Positions 1,376 through 33,628 of a DNA stretch of 64,000 nucleotides are shown one piece after another. The notes beneath the pieces are model-generated. The model had not been told where the DNA came from and searched no databases. It was given only the letters and a program-made list of their open reading frames with translations. Origin of the DNA: a phage; sequence record PV805631.1. One strand, 5' to 3'. Within the stretch, counting starts at the first letter, position 1. Each line of letters opens with the position of its first letter. A program made the translations under genes and the position numbers.

Positions 1376-1870
1376 ATGAAGAAACCATATGGCTATTGGC
1401 AACAATCTGCTCACAATTTAGCCAAGATTCATGACCAATCTGATGCTCAGAGTAATGGGTACATATATGTAAAACATGATGGTAAAACCGTACTTTTACA
1501 TGTGTGGATTTGGGAGCAAATCAACGGTGCTATACCGGAAGGGTATGAGATAGACCATGAAAATGGTATCCGTTGGGACTGTAGGTTAAGCAACCTACGA
1601 TGCGTACCAAAGCTAATTAACCTAAGAAACTCAGCAAAACAAGCTAACAATACATCTGGTACTACTGGTGTAAGTATCATTACAGATAGGGGCAGAGAAT
1701 ATTGGATTGCTACATGGAGTGAGCCAGTTACAGGCAAGAAGAGAATGAAGCGCTTCAGTGTACAGAAGAATGGCTATGATACTGCTAAGCAGCTAGCCAT
1801 CAACTATCGTACAGAAGTTCTAAAAGATTTAATTAAAAATCATGACTATACAGAACGTCACGGTATGTGA
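1376..1870 (+). CDS. HNH homing endonuclease with AP2-like DNA-binding domain
   Basis: HNH_3-like motif (EIDHENG...NLR) plus AP2-like segment (NTSGTTGV...W); clear paralog of the ORF at 33131. Confidence 0.75.
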   Translation: MKKPYGYWQQSAHNLAKIHDQSDAQSNGYIYVKHDGKTVLLHVWIWEQINGAIPEGYEIDHENGIRWDCRLSNLRCVPKLINLRNSAKQANNTSGTTGVSIITDRGREYWIATWSEPVTGKKRMKRFSVQKNGYDTAKQLAINYRTEVLKDLIKNHDYTERHGM

Positions 1871-1947
1871 ATAGGGCTTTTCGACGAAGAGTCACTAAAA
1901 CTTAAACGTAAACAGAAGCAGATAACTTAGAGTAAGGAGTAATCAAG

Positions 1948-2133
1948 ATGCGTGTACTATGTAACCGTTATAATCCAGCAAAGTTAATCGACTTTATGGA
2001 ACCCATTGGTAGTCGTATGACTTATGCTGCTCGTTGGCAGGTATCCATAGCTGATAGTAGAGAACGTACTTATGACTACTTCTTTGTAGCTAAGCCTACT
2101 CGTAAACAAATCCGTAAACTTCACAAAGGATAA
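1948..2133 (+). CDS. Hypothetical protein (61 aa)
   Basis: ORF with AAGGAG upstream. Confidence 0.4.
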   Translation: MRVLCNRYNPAKLIDFMEPIGSRMTYAARWQVSIADSRERTYDYFFVAKPTRKQIRKLHKG

Positions 2134-2137
2134 TGCT

Positions 2138-2290
2138 ATGAAGCTACTGGCAGAGATTCTATGTATTTTATTAATGATACTGCTGGTAGCTGCATTTCCG
2201 TGGCTATTAGCCGTAGGTATAGTTATTGGTATGTTCCTAGCCAGAGCGAGTGATGCTCGTGGTAGGGATGAGCCAGGTGGAGATGTGTAA
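2138..2290 (+). CDS. Small membrane protein (50 aa), below the ORF-track cutoff
   Basis: ATG 8 nt after AAGGA; hydrophobic core LLMILLVAAFPWLLAVGIVIGMFLA. Confidence 0.3.
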   Translation: MKLLAEILCILLMILLVAAFPWLLAVGIVIGMFLARASDARGRDEPGGDV

Positions 2291-2322
2291 ACACTGCCGG
2301 AAGGGTATGTACGGAGGAACCA

Positions 2323-2496
2323 GTGATATTCACTAACATTGAAGATGCCATTGAAGAATGTATCTTCCGTAGATATCACACTGGAGTACAGAAACGACAC
2401 TATGGTGTTGTGCAACTCAATGGCTATCAAATGGCTGTAAGAATTGTACGTAACAATAAACCTTTTAACTTTATGTGGAGTACTAAACATGCGTAA
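2323..2496 (+). CDS. Hypothetical small protein (57 aa, GTG start)
   Basis: GGAGG 5 nt upstream of the GTG; open frame to TAA. Confidence 0.25.
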   Translation: MIFTNIEDAIEECIFRRYHTGVQKRHYGVVQLNGYQMAVRIVRNNKPFNFMWSTKHA

Positions 2497-2620
2497 GTCA
2501 TTAATCATGGGAACCAAAGCTGACGTACAGAAGATGAAAGAACGTCTGGCTGCTAAGAAACAGGCATCTGAACCAGTACGTAAGATTGTTACCTTCAATC
2601 ATCCGTGCATCAAATAGTAA

Positions 2621-31050: not shown

Positions 31051-31090
31051 GCGTTTGCCTGGTTGTTAATCACTTATTAGGAAAAATATT

Positions 31091-31894
31091 ATGTCACTGT
31101 TCAGTAACTTGAAAGAAAAGACCAAAAACGTTGAAGCTGTAAAAGACTCCCTTGGTGGTGGTGGCTTCGGTGCAAAAGAATCCGATATCTACACCGGTAC
31201 TGTAAAAGTAGCTTATGTAGGTAAAGCTGACTCTGGTGCAGACTGGATGCAGTTAATCATTGAAAACCTGAAAGGTTCTGACGGCAATGATGCTGGTGAG
31301 TTCCGTGCTCAGGTGTACTTTACTTCTGGTAATGCTAAAGGCAATAAGCCAACTTACGAGAAGAATGGTAAAGAGTACTTCCTGCCTGGTTACACTGTCA
31401 TTAATGACATGATGCTGATGGCTACTGGTTGTGAACTGCCAGATGCAGACTTCGAAGAGAAGATTGTTAAAGTCTATGACTTCGATCTGAAAGCTGAAAC
31501 CAATAAATCTGTCATGGTTCCAGTTGACCTGGTTGGTCAGACTGTTACCTTCGCTCTGGAAAAGGTTCTGGAAGCTAAGCAGGTTAAAGGTGACAACGGT
31601 TACGTTGACTCCGGTGAAACCCGTGAAGTAAACGAGATTCAGAAAGTGTTTCACCCGGAACTGCTGGTCACAGTCGTCGAGGCTCAGGAAGCAGAGAAGG
31701 CTGAGAAAGAACTGACCCCAGAACTGGCTGTATTCTACGGAGCATGGCTGGAAAAGAACAAAGGTAAAACCCGTGATAAGACCAAGGGTTCTGCTGGTGG
31801 TAATGGTAAAGGTGGCTTGCCTCCTAAACCAGGTGCAGGTGCTGGCACGGGTACTACTCCAGCTGGTGGTAAATCTCTGTTCGGTAAGCGTTAA
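31091..31894 (+). CDS. Single-stranded DNA-binding protein (N4 gp45-like)
   Basis: Size, position after replication genes, Gly/Pro-rich C-terminal tail. Confidence 0.55.
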   Translation: MSLFSNLKEKTKNVEAVKDSLGGGGFGAKESDIYTGTVKVAYVGKADSGADWMQLIIENLKGSDGNDAGEFRAQVYFTSGNAKGNKPTYEKNGKEYFLPGYTVINDMMLMATGCELPDADFEEKIVKVYDFDLKAETNKSVMVPVDLVGQTVTFALEKVLEAKQVKGDNGYVDSGETREVNEIQKVFHPELLVTVVEAQEAEKAEKELTPELAVFYGAWLEKNKGKTRDKTKGSAGGNGKGGLPPKPGAGAGTGTTPAGGKSLFGKR

Positions 31895-32448
31895 TGAAAA
31901 TCCCAATTGTCGGTGCAGACATTAGCCTCCGCAATTGGGGATTAGCTCGTGGGATGCTGGACATTGAGTCCGGCGTCTTCGAGCAGGTCGAACTTAAACT
32001 GGTTCAAACTGAAGTTGACCACAACAAACAAGTTCGAACCAACTCCAAAGATATACAAGCTGCCCATGATTTGTTTCTTGGTTGTGAGGAATGGTTACGG
32101 TCTGCTAAAGCAGTATTCGTAGAAGTACCAGTAGGCTCTCAGTCTGCTAATGGAATGAAGTCCTATGGTGTATGCGTAGGATTAATTGGTGCATTCCGTG
32201 CATTGGGTTGTCCAATCTTTGAAGTATCCCCAATTGAAAACAAACTTGCACTGGTCGGCGATAAAACTGCATCAAAAGACACGATGATTCGTGCTGCTCA
32301 TGCCATCTATCCTGAAGCCAACTGGCTCACGGATAGTAAAGGTAAACTTCTGAATAAGAATGAGCACTTAGCTGATGCAATCGGTGCAATCCACGCTGGT
32401 GTAAATCTCCCAGCTTTCCAGAATCTCATTAAATTAATAAAGGCATAA
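31894..32448 (+). CDS. RuvC-like Holliday junction resolvase candidate
   Basis: N-terminal IVGADISLRNWGLA resembles the RuvC LGIDPGSR..G motif. Confidence 0.45.
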   Translation: MKIPIVGADISLRNWGLARGMLDIESGVFEQVELKLVQTEVDHNKQVRTNSKDIQAAHDLFLGCEEWLRSAKAVFVEVPVGSQSANGMKSYGVCVGLIGAFRALGCPIFEVSPIENKLALVGDKTASKDTMIRAAHAIYPEANWLTDSKGKLLNKNEHLADAIGAIHAGVNLPAFQNLIKLIKA

Positions 32449-32449
32449 T

Positions 32450-32899
32450 ATGCAAATCGTTCTGAACCAGTCTGAAGTAGAAGCTGCTATTGAAGCTTAT
32501 GTAAATGAACAGGTTAATCTTGCCGGGGACATTAATATCCTGGTGAATGCAGATGGTACTGCCACCATTGGCATCAATGAAGAGGCCGGTCATAGTGATG
32601 ACACTCCCCCCGTGGTAGAGAAGAGGACTCGTCGTTCTCGTAAGAATCCACAAGAAGCCAAACACCGTCCGGTAGAACCAGAACCAGTTGTTGGGGATGA
32701 AACTGAAGAAGAGGTAAAGGAAGAAGAAACCCAGACCTCTACTGGTGGTGTGAACGAGAGTTCTACGCCGGAACCTGAAGAAGCAGTAGCTGAACCAGAA
32801 GCACAAGAAGAAGTTGTGCAGGAGGAAGTTAAGGCAGAAGAACCAGCAGAGAAACCTGCTGCGAAGCCTTCACTGTTCGCTGGCCTAAAACGTAGTTAA
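32450..32899 (+). CDS. Acidic Glu/Pro-rich protein (149 aa)
   Basis: ORF track; C-terminal half strongly acidic and low-complexity. Confidence 0.5.
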   Translation: MQIVLNQSEVEAAIEAYVNEQVNLAGDINILVNADGTATIGINEEAGHSDDTPPVVEKRTRRSRKNPQEAKHRPVEPEPVVGDETEEEVKEEETQTSTGGVNESSTPEPEEAVAEPEAQEEVVQEEVKAEEPAEKPAAKPSLFAGLKRS

Positions 32900-33130
32900 T
32901 CTGGTAGGTGGCTCAGAAGCTGCTGCTAGGTGTGGTAGTGTTTATAGTACTGATGCTACTACTGGTCAGGATTATAGACGTGTCGGCTCCATACATAGCT
33001 TTTATCATCACTGTCATTATCCTGTGGAAATGCAGTGGTAAACACGGTGGTGACAAGCCGCCAGAATAACAACAACCGAGCCAGAGAGTTTTAATACTCT
33101 CCGAAGCTCTCTGGTTCATCTGAGGTATTT

Positions 33131-33628
33131 ATGAGCAAGCCATTAGGATACTGGAATAAACCTGCCCATGAACTCGCTGTAGTACATTCTCCCGATGATG
33201 CCAATGCAAAGGATGGATACATCAGTATTAAACGTCATGGGGTGAGGGTATTTCTGCACAACTGGATTTGGGAATACTATAATGGACCAATCCCGGATGG
33301 GTATGAAGTTGACCACATCAATGGAATCCCAACTGATTGTCGACTTATTAATATGAGACTGGTGTCCCATATGATTAACTGTCGCAATCGTCGCAAAAGA
33401 ATTGACAATACATCCGGCGCTACCGGTGTGTATAGACAATGGAAGAAGACTAATGAATATTGGACTGCTGCTTGGAATGACCCGCATACAGGTAAGCTAC
33501 GAACTAAAAGCTTCAACATTGGTGTTCTTGGGGATAGCGAAGCCAAAGATGCTGCTATAGCATACCGGGCTACTATAGAAGCAGACCTGGTAAAGAATCA
33601 CAACTACACCTTACGCCATGGAAGATAA
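33131..33628 (+). CDS. HNH homing endonuclease with AP2-like domain
   Basis: EVDHINGIPTDCRLINMR motif plus NTSGATGVY AP2-like segment; paralog of ORF at 1376. Confidence 0.75.
   Translation: MSKPLGYWNKPAHELAVVHSPDDANAKDGYISIKRHGVRVFLHNWIWEYYNGPIPDGYEVDHINGIPTDCRLINMRLVSHMINCRNRRKRIDNTSGATGVYRQWKKTNEYWTAAWNDPHTGKLRTKSFNIGVLGDSEAKDAAIAYRATIEADLVKNHNYTLRHGR

Follow-up and report, generated by a model that had tools for sequence, protein, structure and literature searches.

The 64,000-nucleotide (nt) stretch of phage DNA analysed here (sequence record PV805631.1; called the window below, at its full length) carries on its plus strand four open reading frames (ORFs), gp2.1, gp24.1, gp41.1 and gp47.1, whose products join an HNH_3-type nuclease domain to a C-terminal AP2-like domain. 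From position 700 to 25000, the window is 100% identical by megablast to Escherichia phage vB_EcoP_G7C (HQ259105 / NC_015933), an N4-like coliphage (Gamaleyavirus, Schitoviridae) hereafter called G7C, in whose annotation the four genes appear as "HNH endonuclease" or "putative HNH homing endonuclease"; the product of the first ORF is 100% identical to G7C gp2.1. Departures from the deposited G7C record are confined to the first ~800 nt and to about 34267-36000. Specifically, ~460 nt of record region 468-1156, the terminal-repeat area with gp1.1 and gp1.2, are missing from the window, the first 700 nt of the window show only 96-98% identity to the record, and several insertions or deletions lie beyond 34.2 kilobases. 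The window is either a variant G7C isolate or a revised assembly. The features discussed below are collected in Table 1.

Table 1. Endonuclease genes, repeats, haplotype segments and one neighbouring gene in the window (position 1 is its first nucleotide; aa, amino acids; E, expectation value)
Feature	Position	Strand	Basis or remark
gp2.1, HNH-AP2 endonuclease gene, 164 aa	1376-1870	+	HNH_3 E 6e-19, AP2 E 6e-9
gp24.1, HNH-AP2 endonuclease gene, 158 aa	10456-10932	+	HNH_3 E 9e-18, AP2 E 7e-7
gp41.1, HNH-AP2 endonuclease gene, 165 aa	26617-27114	+	HNH_3 E 3e-9, AP2 E 5e-4
gp47.1, HNH-AP2 endonuclease gene, 165 aa	33131-33628	+	HNH_3 E 3e-17, AP2 E 2e-6
gp25 5' end, gp24.1-linked haplotype; candidate recognition region, presumed immune form	10932-10997	+	haplotype comparison
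gp42 5' end, gp41.1-linked haplotype; candidate recognition region, presumed immune form	27111-27176	+	haplotype comparison
Left imperfect direct repeat, gp2.1 cassette	1345-1373	+	23/29 nt identical to right copy
Right direct repeat, gp2.1 cassette	1877-1905	+	pairs with 1345-1373
Left, diverged gp47.2 leader copy, upstream of gp47.1	33096-33134	+	27/39 nt identical to right copy
Right, native-like gp47.2 leader copy, downstream of gp47.1	33629-33667	+	pairs with 33096-33134
gp15.1, free-standing endonuclease-like gene, 193 aa	5625-6206	+	NUMOD1 E 6e-8
gp16 5' end, dimorphic in step with gp15.1	6208-6270	+	haplotype comparison
Virion RNA polymerase, N4-type (G7C gp50)	35470-46749	-	3759-aa ORF

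An earlier note on this DNA, made from the letters alone, had placed four HNH-AP2 ORFs at 1376, 10456, 26617 and 33131 of the plus strand. These coordinates are exact, and both HNH_3 and AP2 were matched in all four products. The HNH_3 scores, 36.9-67.8 bits, all lie above the Pfam gathering score of 24.8, and PHROG 99, "HNH endonuclease", takes in the four proteins at E-values of 1e-31 to 3e-63. The closest solved structure is I-HmuI (1U3E), reached at E 7e-5 with gp24.1 alone and at 2e-8 with a profile built from the four proteins; the same profile also matches AP2 proteins (an ApiAP2 chain) at 5e-4. The D, H, N and N columns that align with I-HmuI D74, H75, N87 and N96 are invariant in the four-protein alignment, and D74, H75 and N96 are cited as catalytic residues of I-HmuI (PMC12724721). 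Since none of the four proteins contains the Cys pairs of zinc-binding variants, they are of the H-N-N type, which is usually paired with AP2 (PMC2248197). The assignment to a nuclease family has thus held in profile searches. The motif NTSG.TGV, which the note had ascribed to all four, is present in three of them, the third ORF (gp41.1) reading NTSGFKGV. The first and last genes are indeed obvious close paralogs: gp2.1 is 52% identical to gp47.1, its closest paralog, and 33% and 25% identical to gp24.1 and gp41.1, respectively.

For the AP2 family (PF00847), the scores are 36.6 bits in gp2.1, 30.0 in gp24.1, 28.7 in gp47.1 and 20.8 in gp41.1, against a gathering score of 33.3. An AlphaFold model of gp41.1, made from an alignment of only the four window paralogs, has strands at residues 109-112, 117-124 and 127-134, followed by a helix at 137-161, with predicted local distance difference test (pLDDT) values of 63-87 for residues 105-150. 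Compared with the PDB by Foldseek, this model has only AP2 domains as its top matches, with root-mean-square deviations of 1.4 Å over 46-47 residues to 7ET4 (TEM1) and 1.6 Å over 51 residues to 1GCC (AtERF1). Therefore, the C-terminal part of gp41.1, the weakest AP2 match in sequence, is predicted to fold as the AP2-type three-stranded sheet plus helix. The model is usable for the AP2 part only, and the HNH assignment rests on sequence profiles. No further HNH-AP2 copy or remnant was found in the 64-kb window by tblastn or by a hidden Markov model of the four sequences run over ORFs in six frames, so the HNH-AP2 count of four is exact. The endonuclease load as a whole is larger by one gene than the note had it, the overlooked member being gp15.1, which matches NUMOD1.

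All four genes are ORFs of their own, set in intergenic positions between intact genes, and relatives show clean empty sites. gp2.1 lies between the gp2 terminator and gp2.2, gp24.1 between gp24 (ATPase) and gp25 (VWA-like), gp41.1 between gp41 and gp42 (exonuclease), and gp47.1 between gp47 and gp47.2; the gp24.1 stop codon overlaps the gp25 start (TAATG), and the gp41.1 stop overlaps the gp42 start (ATGA). The occupied gaps in G7C measure 675 (gp2/gp2.2), 479 (gp24/gp25), 565 (gp41/gp42) and 764 nt (gp47/gp47.2). When empty, the gp2/gp2.2 gap is 143 nt (pSb-1, UE-M3 and UViG_3300045988), and tblastn found no gp2.1 copy after gp2 in the other relatives without the endonuclease gene. The empty gp24/gp25 gap is 4-7 nt in 13 relatives, the gp41/gp42 gap was measured as -1 nt in SP5M, these genes abutting or overlapping in the others by tblastn coordinates, and the gp47/gp47.2 gap is 231 nt. 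The GC content of gp24.1 is 36.5% versus 44-46% in its flanks. We rejected an intron- or intein-encoded reading, since no flanking gene is split in G7C, and likewise a terminase-associated HNH protein of the HK97 gp74 kind, since the genes lie in the plus-strand early/middle block and are missing from most relatives.

The distribution of the genes was followed in the homologous block of 17 relatives, with the genes mapped locally, in a phage collection searched at the nucleotide level (~41 distinct Gamaleyavirus genomes), and in IMG/VR, where scans with gp16 and gp44 yielded 8 Gamaleyavirus-like contigs. Nucleotide homologues of gp2.1 are present in two of the ~41 genomes, G7C and NAN33P5, and those of gp47.1 also in two, G7C and ZQ2 (97.8% nucleotide identity, same site). 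For gp24.1 there are ~10: G7C, four UE phages (92%), Mimir124 (~74%), Bp4, PD38 and Uz-1 (66%, truncated) and Moonfish (frameshifted). gp41.1 is found in nine, G7C and eight others (91-98%). Only G7C has all four genes together. The metagenomic contig UViG_3300024308 carries homologues of gp2.1 (77% aa identity) and gp47.1 (84%) at the same sites; apart from G7C, the gp2.1 site is filled only in this contig and in NAN33P5 (69% aa). Presence and absence across the clade, therefore, show no strict conservation of any of the genes.

Some of the copies are decayed. The Moonfish homologue of gp24.1 is frameshifted, appearing as two tblastn segments in different frames (1353-1792 of the compared stretch), and that of Bp4, PD38 and Uz-1 has a truncated N-terminus and is 56% identical (Bp4 10925-11347 of the compared stretch). 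In Bp4, the annotation breaks up the genes gp24, gp25, rIIA, DNA polymerase and primase, possibly as a result of sequencing errors. In the orthologous pairs for which it could be computed, the ratio of nonsynonymous to synonymous substitution rates (dN/dS) is 0.05-0.28, and the proteins are therefore maintained by purifying selection; the gp24.1 pair with Mimir124 is not among them, its dS being saturated and thus giving no ratio.

The identities of the genes and of the genomes that carry them are discordant. gp41.1 is 98.2% identical to its homologue in Mimir124, with a backbone at 91.2%, and 94.7% identical to those of Bp4 and ECBP1, with backbones at ~88.5%; gp47.1 is 97.8% identical to its homologue in ZQ2 (backbone ~89%). 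Conversely, gp2.1 and its NAN33P5 homologue are 74% identical in backbones at 92.5%, and gp24.1 and its Mimir124 homologue ~73% in backbones at ~91%. With discordance in both directions, vertical inheritance plus loss fits less well than movement of the genes independently of the backbone. At 44-69% aa identity, the genes nearest to gp2.1 are all in N4-like phages: the NAN33P5 gene, gp47.1 and its ZQ2 orthologue, the gene in the gp15/16 gap of UE phages, and genes of Jura and Burkholderia phage HN03. In other groups of phages, homologues reach ~40% at most. This pattern suggests diversification and retargeting within the N4-like family.

The gene gp41 (26075-26545), next to gp41.1, is itself mosaic. 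Most relatives have only 61-72% protein identity to G7C gp41 (SP5M has 94%), and several further relatives align over its N-terminal half only. This variation is independent of gp41.1 presence, as in Mimir124, whose gp41.1 is 99% identical and whose gp41 is 62% identical; gp41.1 therefore stands at the boundary of a variable and a conserved module.

Along the flanks of gp24.1 and gp41.1, sliding identity drops sharply in a single 50-nt bin right downstream of each of the two genes. In this bin, identity is 84-100% in carriers and 64-76% in genomes without the gene (except NAN33P5 at gp42), and the bins beside it are at 90-100% in carriers and non-carriers alike. In genomes without gp24.1, the first 120 nt of gp25 have 24-38 differences from G7C, ~20 of them in the first ~62 nt, and only 4-7 amino acids are changed. 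The carriers of gp24.1 have the G7C haplotype at the start of gp25, and no genome of the entire collection has the G7C-type first 66 nt of this gene unless it also has a gp24.1 homologue, be it intact, truncated or frameshifted. Similarly, at nt 6-63 of gp42, there are ~20 differences in relatives without gp41.1 versus 0-6 in carriers. The G7C-type first 66 nt of gp42 are present in all nine carriers of gp41.1 and, at 95.5% identity, in two genomes without it, NAN33P5 (32926-32991 of its compared stretch) and the Klebsiella phage vB_Kpl_K57alpha1.2 (OY979416.1; 1501-1566). NAN33P5 has the gene-less type in the first 9 nt of gp42 and the G7C type in the remainder, which places the crossover exactly at the gene boundary. 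These two genomes look like cases of precise gp41.1 loss, or like recombinants with a crossover at the gene boundary. The annotation of K57alpha1.2 is apparently displaced relative to its sequence: where tblastn places gp41 and gp42, it shows minus-strand pseudo-coding sequences named "portal protein", "spanin" and "endolysin".

Which of the two gp42 versions came first? The version without gp41.1 encodes LLHDE, like phage N4, and the G7C version encodes LVTDD, with a Ser codon changed from TCN to AGT. The amino-acid states alone point to the gene-less version as ancestral and to the G7C 5' version as derived, the nucleotides of phage N4 being about equidistant from both haplotypes (0.73 vs 0.74-0.77) and uninformative for polarity. 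The simplest reading of the dimorphism is that the gp25 and gp42 segments contain or adjoin the recognition sites of the two nucleases, with the carrier allele as an immune variant that would have been co-converted with the gene. The examination of the flanks for target-site conservation, which the earlier note had recommended, has thus uncovered two gene starts that are dimorphic and track gene presence.

gp2.1 and gp47.1 are each bracketed by an imperfect direct repeat. The two copies at gp2.1 are spaced by 532 nt, which is the insert size (675 minus 143), and those at gp47.1 by 533 nt, again the insert size (764 minus 231); among 300 shuffles, none reached the score of either repeat. Genomes without gp47.1 have a single gp47.2 leader, to which the right copy at gp47.1 corresponds; the diverged left copy is shared with ZQ2 at 100% identity. 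This arrangement suggests that each cassette sits inside its own site, leaving two halves that would not be cleavable. The leaders at the gp2.1 and gp47.1 sites share a CGAAG motif, around which inspection for hairpin or promoter-like structure found no convincing stem.

Taken together, these data make it very probable that the four ORFs are free-standing, I-HmuI-like homing endonuclease genes of the H-N-N type with a C-terminal AP2 domain, spread by intronless homing. We propose the following pathway. In a cell co-infected by a related, gene-less phage, the AP2 domain would bind a specific sequence at or beside the empty site, and the His-Me finger would then nick or cut the gene-less DNA. 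Recombinational repair from the carrier genome would copy the gene and a short flank into the recipient, a process that amounts to intronless homing or, in other words, localized marker exclusion. A difference in its own copy of the site would protect the carrier genome. In the case of gp24.1 and gp41.1, the protective difference would be a recoding of the first ~60 nt of the essential gene that follows, gp25 or gp42. For gp2.1 and gp47.1, it would be the placement of the cassette inside the site, which turns a leader of 29-39 nt into one diverged and one displaced copy. Cleavage by the four G7C proteins, its position and strandedness, and the ensuing gene conversion are what we infer from sequence comparison. 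The same holds for the word "active" in the gene mobility claimed by the earlier note: the comparison bears out mobility through the patchiness, the discordant identities, the decayed copies and the flank haplotypes, and activity would follow from these. The genes had also been said to mark likely recombination hotspots. Qualitatively, this is borne out by flanks that track the gene, by the gp41.1-linked flank in two gene-less genomes, and by the discordance between gene and backbone.

It is tempting to go one step further: four distinct AP2-guided nucleases may recognise precisely these segments, namely the recoded gp25 and gp42 starts and the split, duplicated leaders at gp2.1 and gp47.1. 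We consider this more specific proposal a tentative one, with the balance tipped slightly against it.

Several observations weigh against homing by AP2-guided nucleases, or at least against parts of it. In three of the four proteins (gp24.1, gp47.1 and gp41.1), the AP2 match is under the Pfam gathering score; the gp41.1 model has a mean pLDDT of 54 and is of low quality beyond the AP2 part, and the Foldseek E-values of its AP2 matches are weak (~0.06). The compared genomes are not independent, the four UE phages being near-identical, and likewise Bp4, PD38 and Uz-1; counted as lineages, the haplotype association is therefore backed by ~5-6 for each gene. Instead of selected immunity, the dimorphism of the flanks could reflect sequence brought in from a distant donor. 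The donor-DNA and immunity readings of the flanks both fit homing, and they differ on the location of the target. Finally, a near-native gp47.2 leader is kept in G7C, which would expose its own DNA to cleavage if the target were no more than this leader.

Could the four genes instead be ancestral accessory nucleases, inherited vertically and deleted repeatedly, the patchiness being the result of loss? We find this improbable. It would account for homologues that are always at the same site, for the decayed copies or clean losses in Bp4, Moonfish, NAN33P5 and K57alpha1.2, and for the about equal divergence of gp47.1 and backbone in the comparison with UViG_3300024308 (80.2% and 80.9%). However, gp41.1 of Mimir124 and gp47.1 of ZQ2 are far closer to G7C than their backbones are, and gp2.1 of NAN33P5 and gp24.1 of Mimir124 are far more distant. 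Furthermore, with gp2.1 and gp47.1 each in two of ~41 genomes, very many independent precise deletions would be needed, and loss alone leaves unexplained why an adjacent 60 nt should diverge by ~35% in genes that are otherwise 92-98% identical.

That most close relatives are viable phages without each gene means that none of the four is required, and this speaks against another possibility, which we think no more probable than vertical loss: that the proteins are domesticated and kept for a benefit to the phage, either in degrading competitor or host DNA or as AP2-type regulators of early/middle transcription. The strong purifying selection noted above would agree with domestication, as would the tight embedding of the genes in early/middle operons, with overlapping stop and start codons, and the finding that HNH endonucleases of lactococcal phages exclude the markers of competing phages (PMC12724721). 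Nevertheless, the intact catalytic residues argue against a purely regulatory role, and competitive marker exclusion is homing seen from the phage side and, as such, no true alternative. As for the idea that spurious ORFs match the motifs by chance, or that the proteins belong to a non-nuclease family, the sub-threshold AP2 scores of three proteins are all that could be cited for it. It is already refuted by HNH_3 E-values down to 6e-19, PHROG 99 E-values down to 3e-63 and the profile match to I-HmuI, together with full-length orthologues conserved under purifying selection, and we give it practically no weight. Homing thus remains the preferred explanation for the four HNH-AP2 genes.

The fifth gene, gp15.1, lies between gp15 (RNAP1-B) and gp16 (RNAP2) and is annotated in G7C as an HNH endonuclease / endonuclease VII-like protein. 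Pfam recognised neither HNH_3 nor AP2 nor any catalytic domain in gp15.1. Among the fetched relatives, only Bas96 and ST4 have this gene. In the others, the gp15/gp16 gap is either empty (~206-208 nt) or filled by a gene from one of at least two other, unrelated HNH-AP2 lineages; the gap in pSb-1 holds a gp15.1-like gene that is 32% identical. The first 120 nt of gp16 show 6-8 differences from G7C in the carriers Bas96 and ST4 versus 21-35 in all others, mostly in the first 60 nt, and the 3' end of gp15 (flank 5475-5624) is likewise dimorphic with gp15.1 presence. gp15.1 therefore resembles the four HNH-AP2 genes in being free-standing, in lying in the same block, in its patchiness and in its flank dimorphism, but differs from them in its domains, by which it is grouped with F-CphI-type (Endo VII-like) or NUMOD-containing endonucleases.

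HNH-AP2-like ORFs occur elsewhere in the relatives as well: before gp6, gp15 and gp24, between gp15 and gp16 and between gp35 and gp36, after gp26 and gp42, and inside gp44. The plus-strand block is a general landing zone for elements of the HNH-AP2 type. The Bas96 annotation joins gp44 (Sak4-like) from two pieces on either side of an endonuclease ORF, an arrangement with an intron-like look (31991-33539 of the compared stretch). SP5M shares the Bas96-type gp44 insertion (25724-26266 and 31018-32566 of SP5M are listed for its interrupted genes), and in SP5M and ST4 an HNH or unknown ORF interrupts the DNA polymerase gene gp39 (ST4 35256-35912). G7C has none of the gp44 or gp39 interruptions of SP5M, ST4 and Bas96. 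The block itself ends at the gp50 ORF, where the plus-strand early/middle genes give way to the minus-strand late genes; the cumulative GC skew of the window turns at ~35 kb.

The existence of the four endonuclease genes was already known: they are in the GenBank/RefSeq annotation of G7C, their number was remarked upon in 2013, and the HNH-AP2 architecture has been described since 2004. The 2013 paper counted five HNH homing endonuclease genes in G7C, the most among N4-like phages, none of them disrupting a gene (PMC3670811). The present comparison adds the map of presence and absence, the recoded starts of gp25, gp42 and gp16 that are linked to the genes, the repeat-bracketed cassettes and the fifth gene that the earlier note had missed. 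It nominates candidate targets, the first ~60 nt of gp25 and of gp42, for two uncharacterised AP2-guided nucleases. If the proposed recognition sites are correct, G7C and its gene-less relatives would be a natural system, with sensitive and immune alleles, for homing and marker exclusion in N4-like phages, one that could also read out the DNA specificity of AP2 domains. Likewise, the subfamily formed by gp2.1, gp47.1 and the UE-M3 gp15/16 gene (44-69% aa identity, N4-like phages only) would be one lineage retargeted to three sites. The four sites and gp15.1 mark points of DNA exchange in Gamaleyavirus genomes, and such points matter for phylogeny, taxonomy and the reading of mosaicism in these therapeutic-candidate coliphages.

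How do the G7C genes compare with known systems? I-HmuI of Bacillus phage SPO1, an HNH nicking homing endonuclease, resembles the four G7C proteins in the equivalents of D74, H75, N87 and N96. It is, however, encoded inside a group I intron of the DNA polymerase gene, and its C-terminal modules are not AP2, whereas the G7C genes are free-standing and include AP2. I-HmuI-like endonucleases with marker-exclusion activity are described in Skunavirus (PMC12724721). HNH/HNN-AP2 homing endonucleases are known from phages, cyanobacteria and ciliates (Magnani et al. 2004, cited in PMC2248197). In the Xanthomonas phages Xp10, OP1 and Xop411, HNN-AP2 genes are free-standing, occupy variable positions and show gain and progressive decay (PMC2248197); in ICP1-like phages (IPA-HNH genes), HNH and AP2 are joined in genes that lie near essential genes and at boundaries of genetic exchange (PMC10448857). 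The G7C genes are like these in having the two domains, several copies, variable locations, intact and decayed versions, and a place beside essential genes. For the Xanthomonas phages, no conserved sequences were found in the flanks, and a sequence-independent spread was proposed (PMC2248197). In this respect G7C differs, as its genes are at fixed sites, with clean empty sites and flanks that are dimorphic with gene presence.

A parallel for the flanks is found in the free-standing homing endonucleases of T4-like phages, which spread by intronless homing. SegB, SegF and SegG belong to the GIY-YIG enzymes, and MobE is of the HNH type but lacks AP2; their cleavage and biased inheritance are established experimentally, whereas for the G7C genes both are predicted. 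Like the G7C genes, they are intergenic and lie beside conserved genes, with the target in the neighbouring gene of the gene-less genome. Their homing co-converts the flank, and the carrier is immune by polymorphism; the dimorphism at the 5' ends of gp25 and gp42 in G7C looks alike.

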